Virus record (IMG/VR): IMGVR_UViG_3300020401_000018
Coordinates: 1-59,435 of that record
Source of the DNA: a virus
Taxonomy: Duplodnaviria > Caudoviricetes
Length of the DNA stretch: 59,435 nucleotides
Direction: 5' to 3' (one strand)
Made by a program: the position numbers and the translations under genes
The notes under the pieces: model-generated
Told to the model about the DNA's origin: nothing
Database searches by the model: none
The model's input: the letters and a program-made list of their open reading frames with translations, nothing else
Shown here: piece after piece, positions 302-57,060 of the stretch
How positions within the stretch are numbered: the stretch's first letter is position 1
How the letters are laid out: every line of letters starts with the position of its first letter

Positions 302-2031
302 TGGAGAATGCTGTGTTGTCTACAGAAGTCATGCCATCTATGAGAGCTTTGATGACTGCGGGCCAAGCTTTAGATAAAGAACATGTAGCAGGATATAACT
401 GTAGTTATATTCCTATAGATAATGTACGAGCATTTGATGAACTTATGTACATACTGATGTGTGGAACTGGTGTTGGGTTTTCTGTTGAAAGAAATTTTGT
501 TCAACAACTGCCCCCAGTGCATGAGACAATGGAAGAAAGTGACACAGTTATAGTAGTTCAAGATAGTAAGACAGGGTGGGCAAAAGCATTTAAAGAATTA
601 CTAGCTATGTTATATGGAGGACAGATACCAAAGATTGATATAACTAAAGTAAGACCAGCAGGTGCTAGATTAAAAACATTTGGAGGTAGGGCTAGTGGTC
701 CACAACCTTTGGTCAATCTTTTTGACTTTGCTATAACTATGTTTAAGAATGCAACTGGCAGAAAATTAGATGCCATCGAGTGTCATGATTTGGTGTGCAA
801 GATTGGAGAGGTTGTAGTTGTTGGTGGTGTAAGACGTAGTGCTTTATTATCACTAAGTAATATACAAGATGATAGAATGCGTAAAGCGAAGAGCGGTCAA
901 TGGTGGGTCACTGACCCACATAGAGCTTTAGCTAATAACTCTGCTTGCTATACTAGAACTCCTGACATTGGTTTGTTTATGCATGAATGGAAAAGTTTAT
1001 TTGATAGTAAGTCAGGAGAACGTGGTATATTTAATAGGAAATCTGCCAAGGATAAAGCCGCAGAAAATGGTAGAAGAAATGTTGACTTTGACTTTGGTAC
1101 TAATCCTTGCTCTGAGATTATACTGCGTCCATATCAATTCTGTAATCTTACAGAAGTGGTAGTAAGAGGGGCAGATACACCATCATCTTTGAAGGCTAAA
1201 GTTAGATTGGCTACTATACTTGGTACATTCCAATCAACACTTACAGACTTTAAATATCTGCGTAAGATATGGAAAGATAATACAGAAGAAGAAAGACTAC
1301 TCGGTGTATCCTTGACAGGTATTATGGATAATCACTACACCAATTTACCTACTGCAGATTTCTTAAAGAAGCTTAGACAAACTGCTGTAGATATTAACAA
1401 AGAGTTAGCAAAGAAATTAAAGATACCACAATCTACAGCTATCACGTGTGTTAAACCATCTGGTACTGTAAGTCAGCTTGTAGATAGTGCGTCAGGTATA
1501 CACACACGACACAGTCCTTACTACATAAGAACAGTTCGTTGTGATACCAAAGATCCTTTGACTTCGTTTATGATCGAGCAAGGATTCCCGAATGAACCTG
1601 ATGTAACTAATCCAGATTCTGTTACTGTATTCTCTTTTCCAATAAAATCACCTGATCGTGCTGTATGTAGAAAAGATGTAGGAGCAATACAACAATTAGA
1701 AACATGGTTGATGTATCAAAAACATTGGTGTGAACATAAACCTTCAGTGACTATATCAGTTAAAGATCATGAATGGATGGACGTTGGTGCTTGGGTATAT
1801 AATAACTTTGATCACATAGCAGGTATAAGTTTCTTGCCTTATGCTGATCATGTTTATAAACAAGCACCGTATCAAGATTGTGACGAAGGACAATACAAAG
1901 AACTTTTAAAAACTATGCCGACTAACGTAGATTTTTCAGCGTTCAAAGAAGATCAAGATAATACCACAGGTTCTCAGGAGCTGGCTTGTACGGGCGGTGT
2001 CTGTGAATTAGTAGATGTTAGTGCAAATTAA
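118..2031 (+). CDS. nrdJ: Class II (adenosylcobalamin-dependent) ribonucleotide reductase, monomeric RTPR type
   Basis: GYNC, TNPCSEI, CVKPSGTVS and C-terminal CTGGVC motifs; no beta-subunit gene in the genome. Confidence 0.93.
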   Translation: MSNTLPTEYQQFIHTSRYARYLDEENRRETWTETVGRYFDYMSEHLKKNYKYNLDSTLRHELENAVLSTEVMPSMRALMTAGQALDKEHVAGYNCSYIPIDNVRAFDELMYILMCGTGVGFSVERNFVQQLPPVHETMEESDTVIVVQDSKTGWAKAFKELLAMLYGGQIPKIDITKVRPAGARLKTFGGRASGPQPLVNLFDFAITMFKNATGRKLDAIECHDLVCKIGEVVVVGGVRRSALLSLSNIQDDRMRKAKSGQWWVTDPHRALANNSACYTRTPDIGLFMHEWKSLFDSKSGERGIFNRKSAKDKAAENGRRNVDFDFGTNPCSEIILRPYQFCNLTEVVVRGADTPSSLKAKVRLATILGTFQSTLTDFKYLRKIWKDNTEEERLLGVSLTGIMDNHYTNLPTADFLKKLRQTAVDINKELAKKLKIPQSTAITCVKPSGTVSQLVDSASGIHTRHSPYYIRTVRCDTKDPLTSFMIEQGFPNEPDVTNPDSVTVFSFPIKSPDRAVCRKDVGAIQQLETWLMYQKHWCEHKPSVTISVKDHEWMDVGAWVYNNFDHIAGISFLPYADHVYKQAPYQDCDEGQYKELLKTMPTNVDFSAFKEDQDNTTGSQELACTGGVCELVDVSAN

Positions 2032-2034
2032 CAC

Positions 2035-2064
2035 TTGACAAATAACCCCGCCCCGTGGTATAAT
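2035..2064 (+). promoter_or_regulatory. sigma70-type promoter
   Basis: TTGACA-18 nt-TATAAT with extended TG. Confidence 0.8.
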
Positions 2065-2137
2065 ACGAATTAAGGGGGGCACAAGGGGCGAATTAATTTA
2101 GGTTAGTTTGCCCCTAGCTTTTTATAGGAGAGAGAAT

Positions 2138-2530
2138 ATGAAATATCACCCAGACTATCCCATCAAACTTAAGCCTGCTAAAAAATATACGCAGGAAGAT
2201 ATAGACAAATTAAAAAAACAAGAGACAGAAGCGGCGGCACAAGCTTATAAAGTATCACGTCGTCTAGGAAAAAGAGATAAAAATCATGCAGAAGCATACG
2301 GTGAGTATTTGAATCACAAAGCAAACTTATCTGAATTAAGAAGATATGAGAGAACAGGTGAGTGGTCTAACAATATGGTTCCAGGAACTAATCAAGAAAT
2401 ATATTACAGAGTGGTGGCTGAAGCGTACGATGATAATGGTAAATTAAAAAGTGCGCCTGAAGGATCTATTGTGGATGGACAAGGAAGAATTATTAACGAT
2501 GGAGATGTATCAAATGGTAACAGAAAATAA
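2138..2530 (+). CDS. Hypothetical protein
   Basis: ATG 2138 after AGGAG, downstream of promoter. Confidence 0.75.
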   Translation: MKYHPDYPIKLKPAKKYTQEDIDKLKKQETEAAAQAYKVSRRLGKRDKNHAEAYGEYLNHKANLSELRRYERTGEWSNNMVPGTNQEIYYRVVAEAYDDNGKLKSAPEGSIVDGQGRIINDGDVSNGNRK

Positions 2531-3746
2531 AAACTTAGAAGCATTAAATGCTGTAGTAGTTGCGAAAGGAAATAAATCTGAAGCAGCTAAAACTTTAGGC
2601 ATACCCAGAACTACTCTGGTAAGCAGACTAGAAGCGGCTGAAAGAGAGGGGCTGAAACCTTCTGTTAATCCTCCAGATACTCAAGCTGCCTTGATTGAAC
2701 AAAAGATTATATATGATTTACAAATTTCAGAATTAAAAAAACATATACAAGAACTTGCAAAAGAAAATATAACAGCTGAAAATGTACGTAAGATTGTATT
2801 CAAGTTAGAGAAGCATACACCTAAACCACCTAAGTGGTTAGTAAAATCTTCTCCTGCCAAGGGGGCACCTGGAGTTCCTACTTTGTTTTTATCAGATTTT
2901 CACTGGGGTGAAGTAGTTGATCCTGAGTCCATTAATAATCTAAATGACTACAACAATAAAATTGCACAAAAAAGATTAAGAACAACTGTAGAAACCACTA
3001 TTGATCTGTGTACAAATCACATGGTTAATCCTAAATATCCTGGAATTGTAGTAGCTCTAGGTGGCGACATGATCTCAGGCCACATTCATGAAGAGTTAAC
3101 TGAAACAAATGCAGGAACTAATATCGAATGTGTATTAGATTTGTTTGATCATTTAATATGGGCAATTGATTCTTTAGCAGATGTATTTGGTAAAGTATTT
3201 GTACCATGTGCTTATGGTAATCATGGCAGAATGTTTAAACAGTTCAGGCATAAACAAGCAGCAGCTACTAGCTTTGACTGGATGCTTTATCTAATGTTGG
3301 AAAAACATTACAAGAAAGATCCTCGTATTACATTTATGGTTCCTACGGGCTATGATGCTTACTACAAAGTATACAACATAAACTATTTATTAACACACGG
3401 AGATAGATTAGGAGCTAAAGGTGGAGCAGGTATAATAGGGATGCTTGGCCCAGTAGCTAGGGGTGTACAAAAAATAAAGACTGAGTATGCCACGCATAAG
3501 AAACCTATAGATTATGTTATTATGGGACACTGGCATCAGTACATAACTCTTAATGGAATTATAGTGAATGGTTCTTTGAAAGGATACGATGAGTATGCAG
3601 CTAGTTCTAGGTTTGCTTTTGAAATTCCTAAACAAGCTTTGTGGTTTACGCATCCTAAATACGGAGTTACTTTTCAGTTGCCGATACTTTCGGAAACTAA
3701 CACGATAACTAAAACTAAAAATGATTGGGTTCAGTGGGTAAAATAA
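2514..3746 (+). CDS. Fis-type HTH plus calcineurin-like metallophosphoesterase
   Basis: GNKSEAAKTLGIPRTTL HTH; SDFH, GGD, GNHG, THGD, GHWH motifs; GGAG before ATG 2514. Confidence 0.88.
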   Translation: MVTENKNLEALNAVVVAKGNKSEAAKTLGIPRTTLVSRLEAAEREGLKPSVNPPDTQAALIEQKIIYDLQISELKKHIQELAKENITAENVRKIVFKLEKHTPKPPKWLVKSSPAKGAPGVPTLFLSDFHWGEVVDPESINNLNDYNNKIAQKRLRTTVETTIDLCTNHMVNPKYPGIVVALGGDMISGHIHEELTETNAGTNIECVLDLFDHLIWAIDSLADVFGKVFVPCAYGNHGRMFKQFRHKQAAATSFDWMLYLMLEKHYKKDPRITFMVPTGYDAYYKVYNINYLLTHGDRLGAKGGAGIIGMLGPVARGVQKIKTEYATHKKPIDYVIMGHWHQYITLNGIIVNGSLKGYDEYAASSRFAFEIPKQALWFTHPKYGVTFQLPILSETNTITKTKNDWVQWVK

Positions 3747-3938: not shown

Positions 3939-3967
3939 TTGAATGTGCCCCCTTTATTTGATATAAT
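3939..3967 (+). promoter_or_regulatory. sigma70-type promoter (holin region)
   Basis: TTGAAT-17 nt-TATAAT with extended TG. Confidence 0.7.
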
Positions 3968-4265: not shown

Positions 4266-4697
4266 ATGCCATTTGAAATGATAACTATGCTAGGCTCTAC
4301 CGTTCTCGGTGGAGTGATGAGCATATGGTCACAAAGTATAAAAGCTAAACAAGCTGAACAAAAGATGCTTTTACAAAGGGCAGAAGCACAGACTAATGCG
4401 TTTAGAGAAGCAAGAGAGTATGAGAACGTAGGTTTTCAATGGACAAGAAGAATCATAGCATTGACTGCTATTTTTGCAATTGTTGTTTTACCTAAGATAC
4501 TTCCTCTAATAGATCCACAAGCACAGGTAATAGTTGGATATACAGAATGGAAGCCTGGCTTCTTATTCTTTGAAGGTAAAGAAGTAATGCAATGGGTGCC
4601 TATGGCTCAGCGAGGAATTATTATAACTCCATTAGATACTAATTTAGTAGCGGCTATTATTGGTTTATACTTTGGTGGTAGTTTAGTTAAAAAATAA
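4266..4697 (+). CDS. Putative holin (3-TM, GTA-holin-like)
   Basis: Three hydrophobic segments; WTRRII; C-terminal GLYFGG followed by KK. Confidence 0.65.
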   Translation: MPFEMITMLGSTVLGGVMSIWSQSIKAKQAEQKMLLQRAEAQTNAFREAREYENVGFQWTRRIIALTAIFAIVVLPKILPLIDPQAQVIVGYTEWKPGFLFFEGKEVMQWVPMAQRGIIITPLDTNLVAAIIGLYFGGSLVKK

Positions 4698-5311
4698 TGC
4701 AACAAAAAATTTGGCCTACTTTTGTAGACTTCGGTCTAGTTGATAGAGATTACACTTTTTTAAAAAATTTTATATCAAAAGAAGAAAGCCAATTAGCTTA
4801 TTACTATTCACTAATTAAAGCTATTAATCCATCTGAGACAGAAGACTCGCAGTCTCCTGGTTGGGACATTAGGAGTAATGATCCAATTGGTTTAGCCTTA
4901 TTGTATAAGGTTAAGAAGAAGATGGAAGCTTATGCTAATAAAAAATTATTTCCAACTTATTGTTATTATAGAGTTTATAAACAAGGTTCTGTTTTACTTC
5001 CACATATTGATAGACCGTCGTGCGAATATTCGGCTACCGTTTGTTTAGGATATAATAATTCCAATATACTTAATTACAATTGGCCTTTTCGTGTAGGCAA
5101 AGAAATGTTTATGATGCAACCAGGTGATGCGGTGTTATATAAAGGCTGTGATGTCACTCATTCTAGAGTTGGTAAATATGGAGGTATTGCCCAGACACAA
5201 ATTTTTCTACACTATGTAGATGCCGAAGGGCCTTTTAAAGATTTTAAACATGACAAGAAATGTGGGACAGAATGTTTGTTATGTGAAATAGAAGAGAGAT
5301 CTTTATTATAA
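4697..5311 (+). CDS. 2OG-Fe(II) oxygenase
   Basis: HID(RPSCEYS)...HSR; QIFLHYV. Confidence 0.85.
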   Translation: MQQKIWPTFVDFGLVDRDYTFLKNFISKEESQLAYYYSLIKAINPSETEDSQSPGWDIRSNDPIGLALLYKVKKKMEAYANKKLFPTYCYYRVYKQGSVLLPHIDRPSCEYSATVCLGYNNSNILNYNWPFRVGKEMFMMQPGDAVLYKGCDVTHSRVGKYGGIAQTQIFLHYVDAEGPFKDFKHDKKCGTECLLCEIEERSLL

Positions 5312-5448
5312 TGAAAGCAGCGATAGTATCTGTCATTATATTTGCAATATCCGTAGCTTTAATCTTACACTATTCACCCTACGGCGGACAGCATAATCCA
5401 ATGGAATGGTTAATTTGGATATATAGAAATGTTAGTTGGAATCTTTAA
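5311..5448 (+). CDS. Small membrane protein (45 aa, not in ORF track)
   Basis: TAATG coupling; MKAAIVSVIIFAISVALIL. Confidence 0.5.
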   Translation: MKAAIVSVIIFAISVALILHYSPYGGQHNPMEWLIWIYRNVSWNL

Positions 5449-8400
5449 TATTTAAAGACTCACGCATCTTATCTTTTAAACGTTTTGTGCTTTTATCAGT
5501 CTGAAGATTACGGTATGTTGTATTTGCTTGCTGTATTCCTTCTGATCGTAATCTACTTAACTGTGGAAAGTACATGTATTCGTATCCTACTTTGTTATTA
5601 AACGCCATAACCTCTCTCATAATTTTATTAATTTCTAGTTGTGCATCTCTAACCATGTCTGGATCACGGTTTACGTTTAGTCCTATGTACATGTCTCGGT
5701 AGGCTCTTTTAAGTTTAGTATTAAATCCTCTAATTTTTCCACTATACTTACCCTCTATTGCTTTGTCGTAGTATAGAGCAGTTCTTTCTTTAGAAATTTT
5801 AGTAGGAGTAAATCCCATACCTTGTTTTATTAAATCTAAAGCCGTTAAATCTGCGGTAACAATAGTGCCGTATTTAGTTTCTACGTATCCTTCAGTTGGA
5901 TATTTATATGTAGCTCTGTATAAATTTTTAATGAACGTAGGCATAGCAGCCATGTATAAATCTAAATCTTCATAAAATGCTGCAACTCCATCTTTTGCAA
6001 ATATGTCTTTCATTTCTCTAGCTGAGTCTATAAATACTGCACCAGGTGCTCCTAAGAATTCTTCAACTCTAGCTCCAGTAGGGAAACCTAGCATATTTAA
6101 AAGTGCTCTTATCTGAGCAGATCCTGGTACTTCACCTAAAGATAGTCTACGCTGTACACTTGCCCCCGTTCCTGCTTCTATGACACCTTGCATTAAATAT
6201 TCTGTAGCTTGTGGGCCTACAGTTTCTGCAAACATTTCACGCATCACAGTTCTCATGTCTTCATTTACACCTCTCATTCTTTGTATCAGTCTATAAACTT
6301 GATCAAGCTCTTCCATGCCTGGCATACCCATTAATCCTCCTGTAGCAAACAACATGAGCATAACTCTTGCAAACATTTTTCTACCTTGAGGGCCACCCTG
6401 TGTCATTAGTCTGTGTAATAGGAAGAACATTTGACTTATATAAGTTTGGAATAAGAAGAATACTGAGCCAGGTCCTCTCATAATTTTAGGTCTATTTGCT
6501 TTAGAATAATCACCAAACGTATCGTCAACTAATATTCTGGCAAAGTCCTGTCGAGTAGCTACGCCACCTCTACGTTCTTTATAAGCATTCCACAATTTAT
6601 TGGACGATCCATAGTAATCGTTTGCTTTTTCCATTACAGCATCATTATTGGCTATTCTATATGCAGATATGTAAGCGGTTAAACGAGATATAGTTTCGAA
6701 GGTATTAAAGACACCGCCCATAATGCTTTGTTCAAATTGTCTTGTTCTAGCTCGTGCTTTTGTTTTTTCAGTTGGAGTCATAGCGTAACCTGGAGCCATG
6801 CCTGCTTCGTATATTGCTTGTCCTTGTTTAATAATACCATTAGCCACATCTTCTTTGACTGCTTCTCTAACGTCTGCAGGTATCTTATCAAAGTCTAAAT
6901 AAACATCATTGAATTCATTGTTGGTAAACGTAATCATTTTACCTACATCTGCAGCAGCTCTTGTCATTTCTTTTAGAACTACAGCAGAATTACTAAACTG
7001 AGCTAAAATTGGTCCAGTAAACTGCACCGCACTCATTATTTGTAGTATACCAGACGATAGGTTACCGCCTAAAAACCACCAGAATCCCATTCGTCTAAGC
7101 GATGCAAACTCATGATGGTGTGCATTATCTACGCCATAATCTACCATATTCTGTATAGCTTCTCGTAGCCTTGGTCTTTGATTACCTGATTGTTCTGTAT
7201 ATTTTATAGCGGATGATGTTCTATCACGCACCTCTTTTAAGAATCTATTTCTTGCAGCATACTCTGATGCCACCATACCAAACGAAGTAATACCTCTTAG
7301 TATATCTCCATCAAATCCTGGTACACCTCCAATTTGTTTTCTTCCTCGTAAGAATTGATCAAATCCCACTAAGGTGCCCCCACCTATTCGCCTATCTAAT
7401 TCTTTTCTAGCTTCTGCATAAGCTGTCGCTGTAGGTTCTGACATCCTAGATGCTAATAAATCTAGCATAGAAAACTCTTCTATTAATTTTTGACGCATAG
7501 TAGGTTTATCTTCTTTTACATCTGATATCTCAAACCCTGCGGATGGTGGATAAAGTCTAGCAAGTTTTTGCAAGACTTGATTTTTCTTACCCTCAAATGT
7601 GTTTCCTGTTGCACGTTCTTCTACAAAAGGTTTTTCTATACTTTCAGCATGAATTATTTTGCCTTCAGAATCTTTAACAGTAACGTAGAATTCTCCATAT
7701 CTTTGTAGTGGCACATAATCAAATGTCTTGTAGTCTTCATATATGCCTAGTTGTTTTTGTAAAGCTTTTAGTCCTTGTTCTTCTGTCCCTAGTAACTGTT
7801 GGATAACAGGAAGAGGGGCAAATAATTCTAATTGTGCTGAATCTATTTGTCTCTGTTCCATTGTCTGTAGTCCAATTACTATAGCACTTAGTTGTTGAAA
7901 GTTAATATTTTCCACAGTATCTTTATTCAATGCACTGACATCTAAACCTGATCGTTGTAATAAATTAGGATCCATTATATTTATCATTTGAGCAGCGTTA
8001 ATAATATCATCTACATAGTTAGATGCGATAGTTCCCTTTTTTATTTCTTCAAGTATGTTTTGTATTGCTAACTGAGCTTCTTCATAAGCTATGGCAATAT
8101 CACCCTCTAGTATAACTATCTCACCCTTTTTTATGGTTATTAGATTTTCACCGAAGCCGCCTGTGGTCATGTCTATTGGTGATACAAATATAATTTGACC
8201 GTTGGCATCTCTTCTGTATCTACCTTGTGCACCTTCTTGTTGAGATATTATGTGAGCTTTAGCTAGTGCCACCTTTGCTCCTTCCACATTGTTTATAACA
8301 TCAAAGTATAGGCGCATGTTCATAACAAATTGTGTTTGTATTTCTCTACCTTTTTGCTCCATCTTAGATATTGAATCCCATAAACGTGCAACTACAGGAT

Positions 8401-11400
8401 ATTTGGTAGCAAAGTTTCTGGCATGATTTGCCCACTTACCAAATAAACTTATATCTTTTAAACTAGCTTCTTTACCATCTTCAAATATTTTATCAGTAGC
8501 TTCTGCTGTATCTTTAAGTAATTTGTTACCTTCTTTTTGTTGCTGCCTGTTCATTGTTTCAGGTTTACTTAACTCATCATCTGCAACTGACTCTTGCATT
8601 TGCACTGATGCTTGATAGTTTATGTCTGTAAAATCTGGATTGCTGTTGAACTCAACCTCTTGTATTTGATTGCTATCAAAAACTATAAAAGATTCCTGTG
8701 CCCCTTTTTCTACTCCCCTATCAAAATCACCTGCACGCATGCCTTCAGCCATGTTAACATATACAATACCATCATAACCTCTTTCTTTTATTTTTTTTAC
8801 TAAGTAAGCTGACTGCATATTTTTGTAATTTTTAAACTGACTTTTACCCTCCATAAAGTTAGCCTCAATTTCTCCTAACGCACGAGATATTGCAGCATTT
8901 TCTTTTTCTGTAAATAGAACAGGAGAAACATCAATAGTGTTATAAAAAGTTCTAAAAGCTCTAAAGTTTTTACTGGTAGGTGTTTCAGTAAGCCTCTCTA
9001 AAACTTCAAATGTATCCCAGTTTCCCATGTCTGGCATCCTTAATGGATTGTTAATGTATAATATTGCTGTATTAATACTACCTAAATCTTCCTCAGTTGC
9101 TTCGTCTATATCAAAGCGACCATCTTGAAATAATACGCCGCCCGTTTTTGTTCGTCTTCCTACAACTGGTATTAGCGTAGTCTCTCCTCGCCTTACTTTC
9201 ATGTTGTATCTATCTTTTGCTTGCATTTCACTGCTTGCAAAATGCAAACCTAATTCACTAATTTTACCTGTTTCAAGCACAGGAATAGTTGAACCTTGAG
9301 AAGTAAAGTGATATGTCTTTTTAATAGAACCTGCTATTCTTAAATCAGATTCAGTCGGTAATGTAATTCTATTTAATCTGTTAGTAAATATTTCTACGCC
9401 TTGAGTTCTAGAATTTAAAGAAGCTAAAAGGTTCATCACTTGTCTTTGTGCCCTGGTTGCAGTCCCTAATTCCATAGCACTGAATGTTTCAAACTTGTCT
9501 GCAAAATTTAAATCTGCACTTTGTAAAGAAGCTATTGCTGCATTCAGTTCTTGAGAAGTTACTTTCTTTAGCTCTGCTAGATAATAATTAGCTTCACTTA
9601 TATTTGGTAGACCCACTTTAGTTGTAAGCGATTTCATTAAACCGTTTACTAACGCAGTTATTTTCCGTAAACTTGGATCAGTCATTAATCCCGTTCTTGG
9701 TTGTTGATATAATATGAATGAATTATATAAACCTATGTTATCTGTAATACTTCCTGTATTATATCCTGAATTTAATACTTTAGTTTTTTTAAGTCCTCTT
9801 TGTATAAATGCCTGGGCTTCGTCTACAGATATGCCTGCAGCTTTAGCTATGTTACTTATCTCTGTGGTTTCCATAACAGCTTTAGACATGATAGCTCGTC
9901 TTGCTATAACTGTGCCATAGTCTAATTTATCAAACACTTGATTGGCTCCATTTAATCCATTGTTTCTAAGTATATTCGCTAACGTAATTAAATAAGTTCT
10001 TATCCTTTCAAATACTCTACCTATTATACCTTTAGGACTATCTAATGCCCCATTTGGGGTGGTTGCCATATATTCTGCAAAGTAGTCAGAGATTGCTTCT
10101 TCTTCCATTTGACTTTGATTTAAACCAAACGGACCATATCTATTTTTAATGTTGTATCTATTAATTAAAGTTTTTCGAGCCGCATCACGTAATACGTTTT
10201 GTTCCTTTGGTGTTAATAAATTATTAAATATATAATGCATTGATTCATGATGCATGGTGTAACGTTGTGAATCTGCTAGCGCTATATTGTCAACAGGAGT
10301 AGTAGCATTCATAGCAACTTCAATTAAACCTAAACCTCCAAAGTATCTACCGTTTAATACTGTGCCCTCTTCTGTCATTATAGAATCAACTAATCTAATG
10401 CTAAGATTGTCTAGCCCTAGTTGATTAAGCTCTTTCTGAAACTGATCACTAATTACAGCCATTGACTTTATAGCTTCAAGTGATAGCTTTGGACGATCTA
10501 AAGAATTAGGATAGTTTGAGACACTCCAATAAGTATCTACATTTTTTTCGTACACATTTTCATCATACCCATATAACTCTTTTCTTATTTGTCTAATTTG
10601 TTTTTTAACTTTTTCTATTGTTTGAGCGCCAGGTATTCTTGGTTTGTTATCTTTAAAATTCAACAAAGGTTCTATGTTAAAACTTTCTAGTAAGGTATTT
10701 AATTCTTTTCTTTTTGCTAAAGAAACTTCTATTATATCTTGAAACTCTTGTATCTTTTCAGTCTGGTCTATGTAAGTTGCTTTTTGCTCATCAGTTAACG
10801 CTTCAACTTCCGCCGCTGAAAGACCTTCTGCCCCTCCCTTTCTTTGACTCTCTAAGAATTTTATTTCTTTCCTAGCTGTATCTACCATTATGTCTGAGTA
10901 AACAAATACAGTGCCTGTTCCGAATCTAATTAGTGGAGTGTATTCAGTTCTAGCCTTATCTAGTGCCCCTTGTAACGCATTTATTTCTATTTGATTTTTT
11001 TGTTTCTTAGCTATTTTTAAAGCAGCTCTAAGCATTTGTTTAGGATTAAACTTAATACCTTGGACATCTAATCTATTTAATATATCAACTATAGCATCTA
11101 TTCTTCCTAAAGCACTTGACGCTTCTAATACTCTAGCTTCTTTTTGAGTTTGTAAATCGTTTATCTGAATATTTATATCTCTTATATTTTGTTTATACGT
11201 AGGATCTTTTGTATCTAGATTTCTTTTTTGTAATCTTAACGATTGTATTTCTTCATCAACCTTTGCAGTTTCAAAGTCTGCTAGTTTTTGTTGCTGTGTT
11301 AAGTTTTCAAACTCTTGATCATTCCGCTGATTTAAAGGGGGCACCCTACGACTCTCTACTAAAGTTCTTGTACTTACTGTCATAGGCTCATATGGAATGC

Positions 11401-45292: not shown

Positions 45293-45320
45293 TTGAAAAA
45301 TATTTTATATATGATATAAT
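45293..45320 (+). promoter_or_regulatory. sigma70-type promoter
   Basis: TTGAAA-16 nt-TATAAT with extended TG. Confidence 0.7.
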
Positions 45321-45325
45321 ACGAA

Positions 45326-45642: not shown

Positions 45643-45659
45643 ATTATGGAGATAAAAGT

Positions 45660-45863: not shown

Positions 45864-45864
45864 T

Positions 45865-46032: not shown

Positions 46033-46033
46033 A

Positions 46034-46995: not shown

Positions 46996-47096
46996 CAAAC
47001 GGAGATCCTAATTTATTTGTTATTGCTATCATCATGGGAGTGACCATGTCAGCTTTGTTGTGTATTGATCCTGTGGCTAGGGTAATAGGACTATGA
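46992..47096 (+). CDS. Small membrane peptide (34 aa, not in ORF track)
   Basis: ATGA coupling at both ends; GAGG SD. Confidence 0.5.
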   Translation: MTNGDPNLFVIAIIMGVTMSALLCIDPVARVIGL

Positions 47097-47674
47097 GAGA
47101 ATTTTTACTTCCAGAATCAAGTGGCATGCATGCATGGTATATTGCTGATAGCTTGTGTGATGAGATCATACACTATTTTGAAAAGTCAGAGATGAAAGAA
47201 CGAGGGGTATGTGGTAAGATAGAATATAAACCTGATGTAAAAGATTCCACAGATGTCCCATTAAATCCTAACAGATTTTTATACGAAAGATATACTGAAG
47301 AATTAAATCGTGGCTTGGGTGAGTACATGAATAAATTTAATTTATTACATACCGTTGGTAAGTTTGATGATAGCAGAGAAAATACTTTAATACAAAAGTA
47401 TTATCCTAATCAAGGCTTTCATAAAATGCATTGTGAGCAAAGTCACATACACCCTTGGCGATTAGTTGTTTTCATGACATACTTAAATAATGTACCTAGA
47501 GGCGGCACTAGATTCCGTCATCAGGGTATAGACTTGCCTTGTGAAAAAGGTTTGACAGTGCTTTGGCCTGCTGGATATACACATGCTCATGCAGGTATAA
47601 CCAATTCAAATGGTTCAGCAGGTATTACGGAAACAAAATACATTGTAACAGGCTGGCTATCATATGTCGAATAA
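47093..47674 (+). CDS. 2OG-Fe(II) oxygenase
   Basis: HCE...YLNNV..GGT...THAH...KYIVTGW. Confidence 0.88.
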   Translation: MREFLLPESSGMHAWYIADSLCDEIIHYFEKSEMKERGVCGKIEYKPDVKDSTDVPLNPNRFLYERYTEELNRGLGEYMNKFNLLHTVGKFDDSRENTLIQKYYPNQGFHKMHCEQSHIHPWRLVVFMTYLNNVPRGGTRFRHQGIDLPCEKGLTVLWPAGYTHAHAGITNSNGSAGITETKYIVTGWLSYVE

Positions 47675-48068
47675 TTTTTTTAATCCAAATAATATAGATT
47701 TATTTGTATATGGTACACTTAAAAAAGATTTAAGACTGCACGGCTTAGTCGAGGATCATAAGTTTTTGGGAGAGTTTACGACTGCCCCCAAGTATGATAT
47801 CCTTGACTATGCTAACGGAATATTTCCTATTGTCTTTAGAAAAGATAATGGATTTAAAATAAAGGGAGAACTATACTCAGTACACCCTGCTCAATACGAA
47901 TACATTTACTTGATGGAAAGGGGGGCAGGATATGTACCAGAACCAGTGTTGCTCGAACCTCATGACTTAAAAGCTACTATGTTTATTCATACAGGCGAGC
48001 CTAATGATGAATGGTTATCAGATGAATATGTAAGCATTAAAGATAACATTAAAGAATGGAGAAACTAA
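47664..48068 (+). CDS. Gamma-glutamylcyclotransferase (GGCT/AIG2-like)
   Basis: FVYGTLK...IKGELYSV...MERGAGY. Confidence 0.88.
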   Translation: MSNNFFNPNNIDLFVYGTLKKDLRLHGLVEDHKFLGEFTTAPKYDILDYANGIFPIVFRKDNGFKIKGELYSVHPAQYEYIYLMERGAGYVPEPVLLEPHDLKATMFIHTGEPNDEWLSDEYVSIKDNIKEWRN

Positions 48069-48709: not shown

Positions 48710-48903
48710 ACACAAAAACAGAATACTACTTGACGAGCGATCGTAATCGTAATATAATCGTAACTACAACTAATTTAGATGAGCTACGTGTGGTTAGAGA
48801 TAAATTAAATAGGCTAGACAAAGATTACTTAAAGAAATCTAAAAGGTCTTTACATGCTGTAAACTTTAAAATTGAAAGGACAAGTGATGACAAAGAAAAC
48901 TAA
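48706..48903 (+). CDS. Hypothetical protein
   Basis: GGAGG SD; coupled. Confidence 0.7.
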   Translation: MNTKTEYYLTSDRNRNIIVTTTNLDELRVVRDKLNRLDKDYLKKSKRSLHAVNFKIERTSDDKEN

Positions 48904-49222
48904 AAAGCGAAGTGATATGGCCATGTATGTAGATGAGGTAGACCAATGTATAAAAGCATTTGATGTTCCTGTCAGGGAAATGTGTGAAAAGTTTCCGCCG
49001 AATGTGGTCATGGCTTCCATGCTAGAGGTATCACTACGAATGTTTTTACTAGCGACAGGATCAGCAGGTGTATTAAAGATATTCTCTGGTTGCGTTAGTA
49101 ATGTATCCACCATGGGTCCGTTGGTAGATGCCATGTTAGCCTCTGGACAAACAACAGATCCTTTAAACTTTAAAGAATTTGCTAACTTAAATATAGTCCC
49201 AGAAGATGAGACATTACATTAG
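48887..49222 (+). CDS. Hypothetical protein
   Basis: AAGGA SD. Confidence 0.7.
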   Translation: MTKKTKKRSDMAMYVDEVDQCIKAFDVPVREMCEKFPPNVVMASMLEVSLRMFLLATGSAGVLKIFSGCVSNVSTMGPLVDAMLASGQTTDPLNFKEFANLNIVPEDETLH

Positions 49223-49677: not shown

Positions 49678-49824
49678 ATGGCAAAGAAATGGAAATCATA
49701 TTCTGCTCACGAAGCAGGACCAAAGAAAAGAACAAGTATAGGTAATAGTATACGAAGTAAGCCAAAGAATAAACATAAGCGACGTAGTTATAAAAAATAT
49801 AAAGGGCAAGGAAAACGAAGATGA
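49678..49824 (+). CDS. Small basic protein (48 aa, not in ORF track)
   Basis: KRTSIG...KKYKGQG; AAGGA SD. Confidence 0.65.
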   Translation: MAKKWKSYSAHEAGPKKRTSIGNSIRSKPKNKHKRRSYKKYKGQGKRR

Positions 49825-50399
49825 CACAAAAAGAAATACAAGAAGGAATTACAGAGACAGTAGGAACATTCCACCCATTTGTTCCTAATTATGGATACCA
49901 CCAATGGAAACTAAAAGGTGAAAGGGATAAATATCTAGCTGACTATTTAATGCTAAGACACAATCAAGGTAGGTTTATTTCCAATGATTATTCAACACCG
50001 CTGAGTGAGGACTTGCGAATAGATGCTGAACACCCTGATGTGTCGTCAGCCGTAGAAGAAATAATGTCACATATAAAAACTGTTAATCCTAAATTAAAAC
50101 TAATGACTAATCAGTTTGGGCAACCAGAGATATGGGGTCAAGTAAATATGAAAGGCGGATCAACTGCCATGCATAAGCATGACGATTGTTTTGCGTTTGT
50201 GTATTATGTTAATGCCCCCGTTGATGGAGGTATGCTTAAGTTTTACATTAACTATGATACAATGTCTCATGTTTGTACTACAGAGCCTGTATCTAAATGT
50301 TTATTGTTTTTCCCTGGTTGGGTTCCGCATTTTACTATGCGAAATCAATCTGACTCACCAAGGATAGTTCTTTCTGGTAACGTAATATTTGGAGATTAA
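49821..50399 (+). CDS. Putative 2OG-Fe(II) oxygenase (HxH type)
   Basis: WGQVN...HKH...VYYV...FPGWVPH...RIVLSGN. Confidence 0.85.
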   Translation: MTQKEIQEGITETVGTFHPFVPNYGYHQWKLKGERDKYLADYLMLRHNQGRFISNDYSTPLSEDLRIDAEHPDVSSAVEEIMSHIKTVNPKLKLMTNQFGQPEIWGQVNMKGGSTAMHKHDDCFAFVYYVNAPVDGGMLKFYINYDTMSHVCTTEPVSKCLLFFPGWVPHFTMRNQSDSPRIVLSGNVIFGD

Positions 50400-50400
50400 A

Positions 50401-51087
50401 ATGACTCAACAATCAAAGCAACTGTTCTGGAAATTTTCTAATGCTTTCACTAAAGAGTTGAGAGATCTTGTGATTAAAGATTTAGACAATGATAATCTTA
50501 GATCAGCAGAAACTTATCAAAGAGATTTGCAACAGGACGTACATAAACATGGCGTAGAAAAGAACATACGAGATGCGAGCACTACAACTTTAGATAACAA
50601 AGATATAAATGATCATATATCTAACATGATGACTATTGCAAATAAACGAGCAGGCTGGGATTTTGATATTGCTGTGAATGAGAAGATGCAATTTATAAAA
50701 TATAAACCAGGAGGACATTTCCGTCCTCATACTGATACAAGTTTTCAGGGACCAAGTGCAACATTTCAATGGAAAGATGATGCACCCAATGAAGGATTTA
50801 AGGTTATACAAATAGCAGATGCATATTTGTTAGGCAATGTAAGAAAGATTAGTTCTACACTTCTGTTAAATGATAATTTTTCTGGAGGTGGTATGTCTCT
50901 TTATTACATAGCCGTGCAGGATAAAGAAAGTTCAAACTGGACCTTGGGCATTGAAGAAGTTCCTTTAGATTTAAAAGCTGGTGATTTAATTTTCTTTCCG
51001 TCTGGAGTATGGCATGGTATAAAGCCTGTAACAAATGGGACACGATATTCTTTAGTAACTTGGTTCGGAGGGCCACCAATAAAATGA
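50401..51087 (+). CDS. 2OG-Fe(II) oxygenase (prolyl-hydroxylase/PKHD-like)
   Basis: HTD...RKIS...FPS...HGIKPVTNGTRYSLVTW. Confidence 0.9.
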   Translation: MTQQSKQLFWKFSNAFTKELRDLVIKDLDNDNLRSAETYQRDLQQDVHKHGVEKNIRDASTTTLDNKDINDHISNMMTIANKRAGWDFDIAVNEKMQFIKYKPGGHFRPHTDTSFQGPSATFQWKDDAPNEGFKVIQIADAYLLGNVRKISSTLLLNDNFSGGGMSLYYIAVQDKESSNWTLGIEEVPLDLKAGDLIFFPSGVWHGIKPVTNGTRYSLVTWFGGPPIK

Positions 51088-52070
51088 TGGATGATGGTAT
51101 TGGATATATAGAAGCACCTAAGTTTCCAAAGTATGTATGGTTGGAAGGAGGCAATGCTAAACAAATGGTATGGGACACGTCTAGCCTTTCAGCATTTAGT
51201 TCGTGCCCCCGTTACTATAACTATCAAAATATTTTAGGCTATAAATCTAAAGTATATAGTACCGCAACTGGTTTTGGATCAGCTGTTCATGATGGTTATG
51301 AGCAACTAGACTATGGTCGCTTTATGGGTAGGTCTAAAGATCAATGTGTGGCTGATGCGATTAAGTTAGTTCTTGTTGAACACGGCGAAGACTTGAGTAA
51401 GTCTGATGATAAGGCAAGAAATTTAGAAGCGGCCTTACGTGCTATTGTCTGGAGGGCTGAGGAATATTGGGAAGATACAATAAAGATTGCCACTATGCCT
51501 GATGGAACCCCTGCTTTAGAGCAAAGATTTGAAGTACCTATAAATGAAGATGGTGTTAGATTTTCAGGACGTATCGATAAGGTAGCAGAGTTAAATGACG
51601 AATTGTATTTAGTTGACACTAAGACTACTAAAGCAAGTTTAACTGATTATTATTTCAATCAGTTTGCACCTAACAATCAAATATATGCGTACCTTTGGGC
51701 GGCTAGACATATATTAAAATTGCCTATTGCAGGCTTTATTATTGACGCAGTACAAACTGGTGTAAATTTTTGCAGATTTAATCGTGCAGTATTCAAAGTA
51801 CCGTCTGCCATTATTGACGAATGGTATGGTGATGCAATACATAAATTATCTATGGCAAAAATATATGCTGATAAAAATTATTATCCTGCGGACTTTACTG
51901 CTTGTGGAAACTATGGAGGGTGTAAGTATAGAGAGATTTGTAATGAGACACCAGAGCACAGAGGAAGAGTTATTGAAGAGTTGTTTGATAGAGAAATTCA
52001 TGAGGACTTACGCAAAGATAATGTTGTTGAGTTACCTCAAGAAATGGAAATAGAGTTTATACCTGAATAA
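51084..52070 (+). CDS. PD-(D/E)XK exonuclease (RecB/AddB/Cas4-like, probable Fe-S)
   Basis: GRID...VDTKT...QIYAY; N-terminal CP plus three C-terminal Cys. Confidence 0.88.
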   Translation: MMDDGIGYIEAPKFPKYVWLEGGNAKQMVWDTSSLSAFSSCPRYYNYQNILGYKSKVYSTATGFGSAVHDGYEQLDYGRFMGRSKDQCVADAIKLVLVEHGEDLSKSDDKARNLEAALRAIVWRAEEYWEDTIKIATMPDGTPALEQRFEVPINEDGVRFSGRIDKVAELNDELYLVDTKTTKASLTDYYFNQFAPNNQIYAYLWAARHILKLPIAGFIIDAVQTGVNFCRFNRAVFKVPSAIIDEWYGDAIHKLSMAKIYADKNYYPADFTACGNYGGCKYREICNETPEHRGRVIEELFDREIHEDLRKDNVVELPQEMEIEFIPE

Positions 52071-52115: not shown

Positions 52116-52670
52116 ATGAGTATTAATATTATAGACGATTTTATATCTGGTGTGGATCAGACTAGATTGGAACAAGCCATCTTAACAGATGAGTCTATTC
52201 CTTGGAACTACAGGGCTAGTCCTAATCACAATCTAGATTCAACTAACAATGGAGATTTTGTTCATAGGGTTTTTGCTTTTGATATTTCTAATTCGTTTTA
52301 TCATATCAATCCTTATATGTTAGATGTTATGAGTCCTTTGATGGTTCGCCTTGGATCGGATTACTTGAGACAAATCAAGATTAATATATATCCAAGATCA
52401 GATACTTTAATGGAACATGCTCCGCATGTAGATAAACTTGATTTTCAGAATAATAATACGTTGCCGTGGCAAGGAGAACAGGAGTACAGCTTGATATATT
52501 ATGTAAATAACAATGATGGATACACTAAATTTTATCCTGATAATGAAGACCCAGTTGCTGTAGAAAGTAAGAGGGGCAGAATAGTTTATACAGATGTTCC
52601 AACTGTACACAATAGCACTACTTGCACTAATGCAAATGTAAGATGTACAATTAATTTTAACTTTAGATAG
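52116..52670 (+). CDS. 2OG-Fe(II) oxygenase
   Basis: PHVD...YYVNNNDGYT...HNSTT...RCTINFN. Confidence 0.85.
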   Translation: MSINIIDDFISGVDQTRLEQAILTDESIPWNYRASPNHNLDSTNNGDFVHRVFAFDISNSFYHINPYMLDVMSPLMVRLGSDYLRQIKINIYPRSDTLMEHAPHVDKLDFQNNNTLPWQGEQEYSLIYYVNNNDGYTKFYPDNEDPVAVESKRGRIVYTDVPTVHNSTTCTNANVRCTINFNFR

Positions 52671-53918: not shown

Positions 53919-53920
53919 GT

Positions 53921-55003
53921 TTGCAAGTGAGTGAGTTTGCGGTACATAATCGAATCAAGTCTCAGCTTCCTGAGTCTGGGAATCCGTTTGCCATAATTAT
54001 GGATTGTCCTACGACGACAGAAGTTAGGCTTGGTAAGATCAATGTAGGATCTATTCAAACTGTATTAGATCCGATGTTTAAATTTGCTGGCATTGATGTC
54101 AGTAGCGCAATGCTCACTCACGCAATCCAATTAAAACCTGCACAAGATAATTTACAAAGCTTCTTTTACAAGAGAAGCGAATATAAAAATGTTAAAAAAG
54201 AAACAGAGTGGAGATCTACTTTTGCTCCCACTCAGTACGGATATTTAAAACCAGAGTACGAGCAAGATATTAAAAGACTCTGGGAAGAGATAGATAAGTT
54301 TAATCCAAAAGTTATTATAGCTATGGGAGGTGTAGCTCTATGGGCATTGTGTGGTCTAGATAAAGTCGGATCATATAGAGGATCGTTTATTGAAACTTCA
54401 AATAAAAAATATAAAGTTATGCCTACATACAGTCCAGTTGCAGTTCTAAAAAATTATTCTTTTAGGCCAACAGTTTTATCTGATTTAAAAAAAGCTACAA
54501 ATATAAAAAAGATAGATTACATAGAGCGAGAGATATGTATCGAGCCTACGTATGAAGAGGTAAAACAATTCCTATCTTATTGTGAAAGTATGAACACATC
54601 TTACAGTCCGCTTTCATTCGATATTGAAACTGCCAATGATGAGATAACTTGTATAGGCTTTGCTCCACACAAAGCTAAAGCTATGGTTGTTCCATTTAAA
54701 AAAGAAGATGGAAAAGATTTTTATGATTACCACACTGAACTAGCAGTTTGGAAATTAGTTGGAGATATACTAAGCAACCCTGATATTACCAAGGTTGCAC
54801 AGAATCAAACCTATGACGTGTCATGGTTGCGACACATGTACGGCATAGAAGTTCGGGGTACAGTGCATGATACCATGCATGCACAACATGTATTACAACC
54901 CGAACTAGAAAAGAGTTTAGGTTATTTAGGATCTATTTATACGAACGAGGGAGCATGGAAGAATCTAACAAATTTTTCAAAGAGTACGAAAGCAGAGGCA
55001 TAA
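53921..55003 (+). CDS. DNA polymerase N-terminal subunit: UDG-like domain plus partial 3'-5' exonuclease (ExoI, ExoII)
   Basis: PKVIIAMGGVA...PTYSP; SFDIET; QNQTYD; HDTM; start uncertain. Confidence 0.85.
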   Translation: MQVSEFAVHNRIKSQLPESGNPFAIIMDCPTTTEVRLGKINVGSIQTVLDPMFKFAGIDVSSAMLTHAIQLKPAQDNLQSFFYKRSEYKNVKKETEWRSTFAPTQYGYLKPEYEQDIKRLWEEIDKFNPKVIIAMGGVALWALCGLDKVGSYRGSFIETSNKKYKVMPTYSPVAVLKNYSFRPTVLSDLKKATNIKKIDYIEREICIEPTYEEVKQFLSYCESMNTSYSPLSFDIETANDEITCIGFAPHKAKAMVVPFKKEDGKDFYDYHTELAVWKLVGDILSNPDITKVAQNQTYDVSWLRHMYGIEVRGTVHDTMHAQHVLQPELEKSLGYLGSIYTNEGAWKNLTNFSKSTKAEA

Positions 55004-55291
55004 ATGAAACGTCCCCAGTATTTTGCGGCAAAGCCTTTGCAGGACACAGATATAACTGTACACAACGAAATTGAATTATGGAGAGCAGTGTTGGATCAAG
55101 CTTTGCAAGACGTAAGTTACATGGGATTAGATAAAGAGTTTATAAAATATAAAAAAGAAACAGAGGAGTGGTTAATAAATGATCATGAAGATTTTAATGC
55201 AGTGTGTGATTATGCATACCTCGACTCAGATAAAACAAGAGATGAATTTTATTATATAATGGGAGTAGCAAATGATAGACGAAGAAAATAA
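55004..55291 (+). CDS. Hypothetical protein
   Basis: LWRAVLDQALQD...W...DFNAVCDYA. Confidence 0.75.
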   Translation: MKRPQYFAAKPLQDTDITVHNEIELWRAVLDQALQDVSYMGLDKEFIKYKKETEEWLINDHEDFNAVCDYAYLDSDKTRDEFYYIMGVANDRRRK

Positions 55292-55553
55292 TGATCCAGT
55301 AAACTTTCCTTCACATTATAAACAAGGTGGAGTAGAGTGTATTGATGCTATCAAGTCTTGCTTAGGCAATGAGTTTTCATCTTACTTGCAAGGCAATGCT
55401 ATGAAATATTTATGGAGATACGAACACAAAGGTAAACCAATTCAAGATTTAGAAAAAGCTAAATGGTTTATTGAAAAGTTAATTACCTTTGTACAGGAGA
55501 AACAAAATGCAAATAATAAAAAACACAGAGATCTCACAGAAATCACTATCTAA
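55272..55553 (+). CDS. DUF3310 (SaV/T7 gp1.7-like) protein
   Basis: VNFPSHY...ECID...GNAMKYLWR..HKG...DLEKAKW. Confidence 0.88.
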   Translation: MIDEENNDPVNFPSHYKQGGVECIDAIKSCLGNEFSSYLQGNAMKYLWRYEHKGKPIQDLEKAKWFIEKLITFVQEKQNANNKKHRDLTEITI

Positions 55554-57060
55554 AGATCAGACATTGTGGGTTTATTGCGGTTTAGACTGCACACTAACTC
55601 ACGAGATATGGACTAAGATAGAAAAAGATTTAGGTAAGAATGATCATGATTATAGGAAAACATATCAATTTGAATTGGATATGTTGAAACCTGCTATGCA
55701 CATGATGTTGAGGGGGTTAAAGGTAGATGAGAAGACAGTAGGCAAACTCAAAGCCCCCCTTGTCTCGTCCCGTGTAAAGCTTGAGCGTATGTTACATTTG
55801 TTTGCTAATGCAGTATGGGATAAAGATCTTAATCATAATAGTCCTACTCAGCTTAAAAGTTTTTTATATGAGTGGTTGGGATTACCGCCAGTTATATCTT
55901 ACGTAAAGGGTAAACAAAAAGTATCTACAGATAAAGAAGCACTCGAGCATTTAATACAAGAGTATCCTAGAGCTAGGCCTTTTTGCAGGACTATACTTGC
56001 GTTAAGAGATATTGACAAGCAGCTAAACATATTGAACTGTAAACGAGATCGTGATGGAAGAGTCAGATGTTCTTTTAAAGTTGCAGGAACTGAGACTGGT
56101 AGATGGGCTAGTTCAGAAAGTCCTTGGGGCACTGGCACTAATTTACAAAATATCACAAAGGATATGCGTGAAATATTTGTACCCGATGGGGACAATGTTT
56201 TATTTTATGCAGACCTAGAGCAAGCCGAGTCGAGAGTAACTGCTTACGTTGCAGGCGATCAGGGGTATATAAATGCTTGCGAAGGAGAAGACTTACACAC
56301 ACAAGTAGTTAAAATGGTGTGGCCAAATATGGGCTGGTCATCTGACCCTGTGCAAAACAGAGAGTTAGCAGACCGTCCGTACATTGGCCACTTCAGTTAC
56401 AGAGACATGTGTAAGCGAGCAGGGCATGGTACTAATTATGGATTGTCAGCCACTTCATTGGGCAGACATCTTAAAATTAAGTTATCTCATGCTACAAGGT
56501 TTCAACTACTTTATTACGGAGGAGTAGTTGCTTTGGCATCTCTTGAGAGATGGCATAAACAGGACAGAGAAGGAGGCTTCCAAGAACTGATTGATGGGGG
56601 CACGGTTCTAGGGTCAGGCCCTTCCTCTCTCGTTCGTATCGAAGGGGCATTCCCTGGAATCCGAAAGTGGCACAGTGCTATTGCTAATCAGCTTAAGGAA
56701 AGTGGTGCGTTAACTACTCCATTAGGTCGTCGCAGACAGTTTTGGGGACGCACGGAAGAAGGCACTACCTTACGCAAAGCAATTGCATATGTGCCACAAT
56801 CTACTATTGGAGATCTATTAAATCTTGGTTTATACAGAGTGTGGAATGAACTTAAAGATGATAACGTAGAGATACTAGGGCAAGTACACGATGCTATATT
56901 GGGACAGTTTCCAAAAGATAAAGCAGATGTAGTTGTTCCTAAAATTTTAAATTGTATGAAGAACCCTCTTGAAGTAAATGGTAGACAAATGATAATACCA
57001 TCAGACTGTGAGATTGGTGTCAATTGGAAGGATATGAAAAAGTATGTTGGTAACAGATAA
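55507..57060 (+). CDS. polA: DNA polymerase family A, ExoIII plus polymerase domain
   Basis: YCGLD; TETGRWAS; NLQNI; DLEQAESR (motif A); KRAGHGTNYG (B); QVHDA (C). Confidence 0.95.
   Translation: MQIIKNTEISQKSLSKDQTLWVYCGLDCTLTHEIWTKIEKDLGKNDHDYRKTYQFELDMLKPAMHMMLRGLKVDEKTVGKLKAPLVSSRVKLERMLHLFANAVWDKDLNHNSPTQLKSFLYEWLGLPPVISYVKGKQKVSTDKEALEHLIQEYPRARPFCRTILALRDIDKQLNILNCKRDRDGRVRCSFKVAGTETGRWASSESPWGTGTNLQNITKDMREIFVPDGDNVLFYADLEQAESRVTAYVAGDQGYINACEGEDLHTQVVKMVWPNMGWSSDPVQNRELADRPYIGHFSYRDMCKRAGHGTNYGLSATSLGRHLKIKLSHATRFQLLYYGGVVALASLERWHKQDREGGFQELIDGGTVLGSGPSSLVRIEGAFPGIRKWHSAIANQLKESGALTTPLGRRRQFWGRTEEGTTLRKAIAYVPQSTIGDLLNLGLYRVWNELKDDNVEILGQVHDAILGQFPKDKADVVVPKILNCMKNPLEVNGRQMIIPSDCEIGVNWKDMKKYVGNR

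Follow-up and report, generated by a model that had tools for sequence, protein, structure and literature searches.

The heptamer GGGGGCA, a DNA signal under strong selection across a clade of uncultured marine phages

Introduction

Stoperators, the 13-bp sites of cluster A mycobacteriophages that lie mostly between genes and in one orientation relative to transcription, place many copies of one asymmetric word across a phage genome. The same is true of the heptamer GGGGGCA in the DNA analyzed here, the whole 59,435 nucleotides of IMG/VR virus record IMGVR_UViG_3300020401_000018 (Duplodnaviria; Caudoviricetes), hereafter the window. Unlike stoperators, GGGGGCA is intragenic at 27 of its 31 sites and occurs in both orientations. 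In one respect or another it is like Chi sites, nick motifs and primase sites, but it fits the full definition of none of them.

Chi sites and GGGGGCA are both short, asymmetric, G-rich, sharply specific and dispersed through genes in all reading frames, and both are enriched in phage genomes; Chi sites act in one orientation only, and orientation may matter for GGGGGCA too. For Chi, the accessible part of PMC3784561 reports that lambdoid phages without RecBCD inhibitors over-represent the Chi sequence of their host with a median observed/expected ratio of 2.5, and the five species with experimentally known Chi sequences are listed in the available part of bioRxiv 10.1101/2020.08.13.249359. 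Nicked genomes are described for T5, phiKMV and the LUZ24/tf/Rembedalsseter group (PMC11780129, accessible part). The nick motifs, like GGGGGCA, are clade-specific, some 18-20-fold enriched, conserved across relatives of little nucleotide identity and mostly, though not only, on the coding strand inside genes; however, they are 9-mers present in 13-14 copies on one strand, whereas GGGGGCA is a 7-mer present in about 30 copies on both. Primase sites share with GGGGGCA a kilobase-scale spacing on both strands and, in the case of SP6 primase, the triplet GCA (PMC5737085, accessible part), which stands at the 3' end of the heptamer; its G run, like GGGTC in T7, would serve as template for a C-rich primer. 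Primase sites specify three to five bases in the sources available, whereas GGGGGCA specifies seven and shows no strand polarity about the putative origin.

Results and discussion

Enrichment and specificity of GGGGGCA

GGGGGCA occurs 31 times in the window, 14 times on the + strand and 17 times on the - strand, or about once in every 2 kb. Of all 7-mers in the genome it is the most over-represented (order-2 Markov expectation 1.58, z 23.4). Its genome-wide excess had been claimed in a preliminary description of this DNA, and all 31 coordinates listed there are exact matches, against null counts of 1.6-6.3. None of 100 dinucleotide-preserving shuffles reached 31 (mean 2.38, standard deviation 1.45, maximum 7). 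The same description had named a codon- and amino-acid-preserving null as the check under which the excess might vanish, and it does not (31 versus about 6). These synonymous-codon shuffles, 200 of each kind, preserve all proteins and gave a null mean of 6.29 (maximum 11) within genes and 5.86 (maximum 10) genome-wide, with four of the null counts sitting in 2,312 bases that stay unshuffled; the gene calls behind all coding-class tests are based on open reading frames, not on curated annotation.

When the sites were split by class (300 shuffles), 19 were sense against 1.81 expected, 8 were antisense against 0.20, and 4 lay in the 2,312 non-coding bases; non-coding DNA is the most enriched class, and antisense and non-coding sites are enriched more than sense sites. 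The sites within genes had been described as antisense, but most are in fact sense (19 of 27). Sense sites are spread across the three reading frames (10, 7 and 2), antisense sites likewise fall in all frames, and a backwards-read control for RGGGGCA occurs 0 + 4 times versus 21 + 31 for the real word. The flanks of the sites have neither extended similarity nor a fixed partner element. Together, the frames, orientations, shuffles and dissimilar flanks indicate that it is the DNA itself that is constrained and that codons, dipeptides or a dispersed repeat do not account for the excess, and it is very probable that GGGGGCA is a signal selected at the DNA level rather than at the codon, protein or RNA level. 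The GC skew tracks the direction of transcription and the coding strand is G-rich (GC skew ~0.15), which favors G-rich sense words and might suggest that the excess has no function and is a by-product of codon or amino-acid usage, a dispersed repeat or an assembly error. We regard this as extremely improbable, since the excess survives the synonymous-codon shuffles, extended similarity is absent from the flanks, the same excess is seen in independent assemblies from many samples, and neighboring variants of the word are not enriched.

The specificity is sharp. In four pooled genomes GGGGGCA is 19.7-fold enriched (118 versus 6.0) and AGGGGCA 5.4-fold (62 versus 11.5), while 19 of the other 20 single-base variants lie within 0-1.9-fold and the last, GGCGGCA, reaches 3.0-fold on 10 counts. 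Such sharp specificity is what a sequence-specific protein produces. The claim that many GGGGCA variants also occur stands in a narrower sense: there are 55 copies of GGGGCA in the window, but 52 of them are RGGGGCA, which is the wider form of the signal. AGGGGCA accounts for 21 sites against 3.2 expected, and these weaker sites (1167 to 58873) start at 1167, 7814, 37460, 52572, 53041, 56643 and 58867 on the + strand and at 2109, 8699, 10829, 10964, 12812, 12939, 17537, 19096, 19596, 23280, 36848, 38336, 43515 and 58101 on the - strand. AGGGGCA and GGGGGCA swap for each other between relatives, and there is a mild flank preference for A at the three preceding bases and for C at the following one.

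The word among relatives

The excess is shared by the relatives of this phage, a check that the preliminary description had proposed. The 80 IMG/VR loci with a 76-100% identical terminase (600,122 bases) hold 299 copies versus 24 expected, with at least two in 79 of the 80, and three long relatives carry 29, 27 and 31 copies (strand splits 15/14, 11/16 and 15/16; backwards control 3-4). A lineage with a 62% identical helicase has 28 copies versus 2.8 expected; A precedes 26 of the 28, and AGGGGCA is absent. A lineage with a 47% identical helicase (GC 0.45-0.50) has no GGGGGCA excess, no comparable word was found in Kuura, PaP2 or Mel-JY34, whose polymerase/helicase type is 24-36% identical, and the Pelagibacter phages HTVC027P and HTVC023P (50 kb each) hold 0 and 2 copies. 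Neither of two further helicase representatives, P0122 and P0124, yielded an IMG/VR locus. By this distribution the word is a trait of one marine clade, in which recognition drifts slightly. Members of the clade turn up in seven marine metagenome studies and in hundreds of contigs of IMG/VR, and the phage collection searched holds no cultured member of it. In this uncultured lineage of marine phages GGGGGCA is a real DNA signal, under strong selection and present clade-wide, with a reader that is putative.

Two loci of the lineage with the 47% identical helicase (L155 and L156) have 5 and 8 copies of a 17-nt element, AGTGGGGGAWWGGAGAC, which often stands directly 3' of a TATAAT box and includes a GGAGA ribosome-binding site. 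This is a different, leader-type G5 element.

Literature searches, supplementary files aside, returned no paper describing a GGGGGCA motif; the word itself yields primer lists or nothing. A metagenome scan for two same-strand copies 30-60 bases apart with AT-rich flanks returned at least 80 loci, mostly local clusters such as tandem repeats, which are unrelated to the window; among the matches listed there was no long low-GC contig with a dispersed excess, and the scan has no bearing on the host. Some 30 copies per genome held against codon preference point to a strong and previously unrecognized requirement of the infection cycle, which could be for end protection and recombination, for priming or for nicking. 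GGGGGCA is also a simple marker for this lineage in metagenomes and a precise target when native long reads of marine viromes are re-analyzed in search of strand breaks or modified bases.

Conservation, turnover and spacing of the sites

Genes on the + strand run from ~41.9 kb through the end of the window to 5.4 kb and form the early arm, with nucleotide metabolism and replication; genes on the - strand run from 41.9 kb down to 5.4 kb and form the structural arm. In the relative G001 (81% nucleotide identity) 22 of 28 aligned sites are kept, in G002 (74%) 9 of 18 and in G003 (70%) 3 of 8, where the background conservation of 7-mers is 0.31, 0.16 and 0.10, respectively. Antisense sites, the rarer orientation, survive more often than sense sites do, at 11 of 11 versus 11 of 17 in G001 (one-sided Fisher P 0.033) and at 6 of 8 versus 3 of 11 in G002 (one-sided Fisher P 0.055); pooled, the figures are 17 of 19 versus 14 of 28 (P 0.005), an indirect sign that orientation matters, in genomes that are related and hence are not independent trials.

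Several sites stand in regulatory DNA. Site 2075-2081 (+) lies in a conserved 5' leader, 10 nt past a TATAAT box, and is intact in 24 of 24 aligned loci of relatives; 3946-3952 (-) falls within the spacer of the promoter TTGAAT(3939-3944)-17 nt-TATAAT(3962-3967) and is kept in G001. Site 17704-17710 (+) adjoins the -35 box of the - strand promoter TTGCAA(17703-17698)-17 nt-TATAAT(17680-17675), and 31834-31840 (+) lies just 5' of a GGAG ribosome-binding site; both are intergenic. These two and 41565-41571 (+), in the divergent control region, have the antisense orientation and are kept in G001 and G002. Site 45122-45128 (+) marks the left edge of the AT-rich core of an origin-like region, beside ACACCGA-type repeats. 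The placement of sites beside three promoters (3946, 17704 and 2075) and the origin-like region (45122), noted earlier, is thus real.

These positions, together with the enrichment of non-coding DNA above the other classes and a seven-base specificity that would fit a single helix-turn-helix (HTH) or winged-helix domain, might suggest sites for a double-stranded-DNA-binding protein, such as a regulator, a nucleoid organizer or a 'self' marker, for which orientation would be irrelevant. However, genes contain 27 of the 31 sites, the flanks have no fixed partner element, and neither the better survival of antisense sites nor the same-strand replacement of lost sites described below is expected of a reader blind to orientation; we consider a protein of this kind quite unlikely.

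The antisense sites within genes include 509-515 (-; ribonucleotide reductase gene, kept in G001), 11337-11343 (+; gene for a 2,860-aa protein, kept in G001), 24681-24687 (+), 38929-38935 (+; large terminase gene, intact in 39 of 79 aligned loci), 47783-47789 (-; kept in G001 and G002), 50213-50219 (-; kept in G001) and 51204-51210 (-; PD-(D/E)XK nuclease gene, intact in 14 of 14 aligned loci). Sense sites on the - strand lie at 6161-6167 and 7375-7381, both in the gene for the 2,860-aa protein, at 39157-39163 in the large terminase gene, and at 13882-13888, 15486-15492, 20305-20311, 21647-21653, 23558-23564, 30504-30510 (kept in G002 and G003), 31527-31533, 34071-34077 and 40598-40604. On the + strand they lie at 2861-2867 in the gene for an HTH-metallophosphoesterase, at 44949-44955, 45588-45594, 46739-46745 and 47921-47927, and at 56596-56602 in the DNA polymerase A gene, where the word is intact in 36 of 41 aligned loci.

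In seven cases a site that is lost has a same-strand replacement in a relative, 20-559 bases off. Relative to G001 these are 15486 (AGGGGCA there, with a new site at 16041, 555 bases off), 30504 (29964, 540 bases off) and 39157 (~39527, 370 bases off); relative to G002 they are 6161 (6181, 20 bases off) and 24681 (24582, 99 bases off); and relative to G003, 38929 (39178, 249 bases off). The seventh is 2861, which reads TGGGGCA in G001 and AGGGGCA in G002 and is replaced at 3420. Site 39157 reads AGGAGCT in G001 and G002 and AGGAGCA in G003; it differs at three positions from the G001 and G002 sequence, and is therefore probably a recent gain.

Taken over both strands, the spacing is slightly more regular than random (coefficient of variation ~0.75 versus 0.95, P ~0.07-0.11 per genome), and per strand the coefficient of variation is 0.58-0.86 versus 0.91 under the null; the largest per-strand gap in the window is 8.4-8.7 kb, where 12-13.7 kb is expected. 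The antisense sites of the structural arm at 11337, 17704, 24681, 31834 and 38929 are 6.4-7.2 kb apart (maximum-gap P 0.0025), and the homologous sites in G002 give a maximum-gap P of 0.0009. It seems that selection maintains sites of both orientations within reach of any point in the genome, without requiring them at exact places.

Comparison of the window with five close loci (L105-L109) shows strong mosaicism, with blocks of ~100% identity switching abruptly to blocks below 82%, which suggests frequent recombination in the phage population. A search for recombination breakpoints near sites found no breakpoint under strict criteria.

Candidate readers of the word

The data call for a reader that tells the strands apart and acts genome-wide. 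The preliminary description had proposed a priming site, with a Chi-like or packaging signal as the alternative. A dispersed, strand-specific signal fits both priming and a Chi-like role, and the evidence does not separate them; nothing was found in support of packaging, and the sites show no strand polarity about position 45170.

We rank a Chi-like mechanism first among the possible readings, while holding it only tentatively. A helicase-nuclease would enter at an end of the phage DNA, which is linear and probably circularly permuted, and would presumably read the word on single-stranded DNA; this reader could be the AddAB or RecBCD enzyme of the host, or possibly a phage-encoded analog. A correctly oriented site would switch the enzyme from degradation of DNA to recombination, which would protect the genome and aid circularization or the formation of concatemers. 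A permuted genome, if packaged by the headful, would expose ends at many positions, and both orientations would then be needed everywhere. The window is a complete phage genome, circularly assembled. Its first 301 bases repeat its last 301 (1-301 versus 59135-59435) at 96% identity, which indicates a circular assembly of ~59,134 bp from a mixed population, despite the class label of the record, linear without end repeats. The assemblies of the relatives are circularly permuted relative to that of the window, and this, with the 301-base overlap, suggests permutation. The small terminase belongs to the Terminase_2 family, which we take to be a mark of pac-type phages. We also count in favor of the Chi-like reading the strongly mosaic population, the sharp specificity, the similar numbers on the two strands, the conservation and same-strand turnover of sites, and the precedent of the lambdoid phages. 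If this reading holds, the host genome should show the same excess, and the word could be used to track the host down.

Several observations weigh against a Chi-like role. To our knowledge, GGGGGCA matches none of the five experimentally known Chi sequences, and its excess of ~20-fold is about ten times larger than the ~2.5-fold reported for Chi in lambdoid phages. A terminase scan of the genomes of 185,579 species returned only 29-32% identical matches in unrelated phyla, with no close relative, and so points to no host. HTVC023P and HTVC027P, which infect SAR11 and have the same structural module, carry only 2 and 0 copies of the word. The phage also has a recombination set of its own, comprising an AAA_24 protein, a Cas4-like PD-(D/E)XK nuclease and a probable SSB. 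Finally, the relatives that show the excess are not independent samples, and the even spacing was noticed post hoc and reaches significance only for the homologous structural-arm sites of the window and G002, being absent in the early arm and in G003.

A related possibility, which we hold with more doubt, is that GGGGGCA is a strand-specific 'self' word of the phage's own, read by phage machinery in a virus-encoded Chi-like system or as the place of programmed nicks in both strands. The reader may be the DUF3987 helicase acting with the Cas4-like nuclease, or else the Mre11/DP1-like nuclease that is fused to an HTH. Recognition may drift between sub-lineages, with RGGGGCA in the group of the window and AAGGGGGCA in that with the 62% identical helicase.

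Alternatively, a phage-encoded nuclease could cut one strand at each GGGGGCA in packaged DNA. The closest published pattern to ours is the nick motif WACTRTGAC, which the accessible part of PMC11780129 describes as present in 13 copies versus ~0.7 expected, common to 61 Pseudomonas phages of little nucleotide similarity, and inside coding sequences, mostly on the coding strand; GGGGGCA, with its excess of ~20-fold, clade-wide occurrence and 19 of 27 coding sites in sense, follows this pattern. The polymerase and the DUF3987 helicase of the window are distantly related (24-36% identity) to those of the Pseudomonas podophages 119X and PaP2 and of the Caulobacter phage Kuura, and a predicted HTH-fused Mre11/DP1-like nuclease is conserved in both lineages that bear the motif. 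However, the published nick motifs are found on one DNA strand only (PMC11780129, accessible part) whereas GGGGGCA is about equal on both, and there are 31 sites here against 13-14 in the nicked phages; a lineage with a 47% identical HTH-nuclease lacks the GGGGGCA excess, and PaP2, Kuura and Mel-JY34 lack a comparable word. We therefore consider nicking an unlikely explanation.

If the word were instead a priming site, a primase travelling with the DUF3987 helicase would start at the C of 5'-GCA-3', leaving the A uncopied, and would copy the G run into a C-rich primer, pppGCCCCY, much as T7 primase acts at 5'-(G/T)(G/T)GTC-3'. The accessible part of PMC5737085 states that the 3' base of the triplet is uncopied in all primases studied, and T7 primase requires the pentamer (G/T)2GTC (PMC12839067, accessible part). 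A characterized helicase of the DUF3987 type translocates 5' to 3', and a primase is the usual partner of DUF3987 proteins (PMC11724360 and PMC4889955, accessible parts). Both strands of the window carry sites whose per-strand spacing tends to be even. A non-coding region at 45051-45425, a putative origin judged from its sequence, has ACACCGA-type repeats in inverted arms of 46 nt (45071-45116 and 45232-45277; 78% complementary) around an AT-rich core of ~80 nt, with a promoter TTGAAA-16-TATAAT (45293-45320) after the arms; one GGGGGCA stands at the edge of this core and five same-strand sites follow within 3 kb.

Other observations speak against priming. DUF3987 helicases usually have a primase gene just upstream (PMC4889955, accessible part), but the 221-aa gene directly upstream of the helicase here resembles one for a 2OG-Fe(II) oxygenase. 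Scans of 40 early-arm proteins with Pfam, PHROGs or NCBIfam revealed no DnaG/Toprim or archaeo-eukaryotic primase domain, although a divergent or host primase may be at work. Recognition by known primases covers three bases according to the accessible part of PMC5737085, whereas GGGGGCA is specific at all seven. There is no strand polarity about the putative origin at 45.2 kb: on the two sides of position 45170, where such polarity had been proposed as a check, we count 7 + and 9 - sites and 7 + and 8 - sites. Moreover, the best-conserved, evenly spaced sites of the structural arm are ~7 kb apart, which is long for Okazaki fragments. Priming is thus also improbable in our judgment, and we place it after nicking. 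The rest of the probability we assign to something not yet considered.

Gene content and other features of the genome

The identified genes include ribonucleotide reductase, portal, large terminase, a split DNA polymerase A and the DUF3987 helicase, and further those for the PD-(D/E)XK (Cas4-like) nuclease, the AAA_24 protein and a GGACT protein. A nucleotide search against cultured phages gave no match to the window, and a tRNA scan of it found none. The terminase is 40% identical to those of HTVC027P and HTVC023P, which have the structural module in common with the window but not the replication module. A 116-aa protein (48872-49222) has a weak FtsK-like PHROG match (E 0.009) with no backing from Pfam, NCBIfam or Atlas.

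The HTH-metallophosphoesterase gene (2451-3746, +) encodes a Fis-type HTH fused to a calcineurin-like metallophosphoesterase with invariant DxH/GD/GNH/H/GHxH motifs. Its alignment-based predicted fold (predicted local distance difference test, pLDDT, 81) is nuclease-like and nearest to the PolD DP1 exonuclease and Mre11/SbcD; a single-sequence fold was poor (pLDDT 39). The family is large, with 4,671 homologs at E<=1e-5, on phage-sized contigs. As a reader of the motif this protein finds no support, because a lineage with a 47% identical homolog lacks the GGGGGCA excess. An excess of CAGGCAC in loci of that lineage (L161-L214) proved to be a coding repeat at intervals of ~105-108 bases in one region, not a genome-wide signal.

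DNA polymerase A is split (53921-57060, +): one gene encodes a UDG-like domain and the 3'-5' exonuclease, a second encodes the polymerase domain, and the small genes that separate the two include DUF3310. A cluster at 42697-48068 (+) encodes an amidoligase, a protein with a weak GATase-like match, and SprT-like, 2OG-Fe(II) oxygenase and gamma-glutamyl cyclotransferase-like proteins, and more 2OG oxygenases are encoded at 49821-50399, 50389-51087, 52116-52670 and probably 57044-57709. In the structural arm, the gene for the 2,860-aa protein spans 5432-14014 (-). HSP20-family, arginyl-tRNA-protein-transferase-like/GNAT-domain and ferrochelatase-like proteins are encoded at 31847-33107 (-) and 4697-5311 (+); the ferrochelatase-like protein is common to this phage and HTVC023P.

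The leader that holds site 2075 belongs to a region (2035-2137) with a consensus promoter, TTGACA(2035-2040)-18 nt-TATAAT(2059-2064), followed by ~70 nt that are nearly invariant in relatives of 70-90% identity. In the leader, TGCCCCT (2109-2115) can pair in either of two G/C stems, with a T run after them, and the gene 3' of the leader probably starts at ATG 2138; no Rfam family matches the leader. At 17666-17703 (-), the ATG of a 464-aa gene stands only 6 nt past the -10 box of TTGCAA-17-TATAAT, a distance that suggests a leaderless or nearly leaderless mRNA. The divergent control region, read on the - strand at 41600-41700, has a G-rich GGCAGGGGGTCTGGGGGGTGGGGGT, then an A/T loop, ACCCCACCC and an A run, a structure that is possibly a bidirectional terminator.

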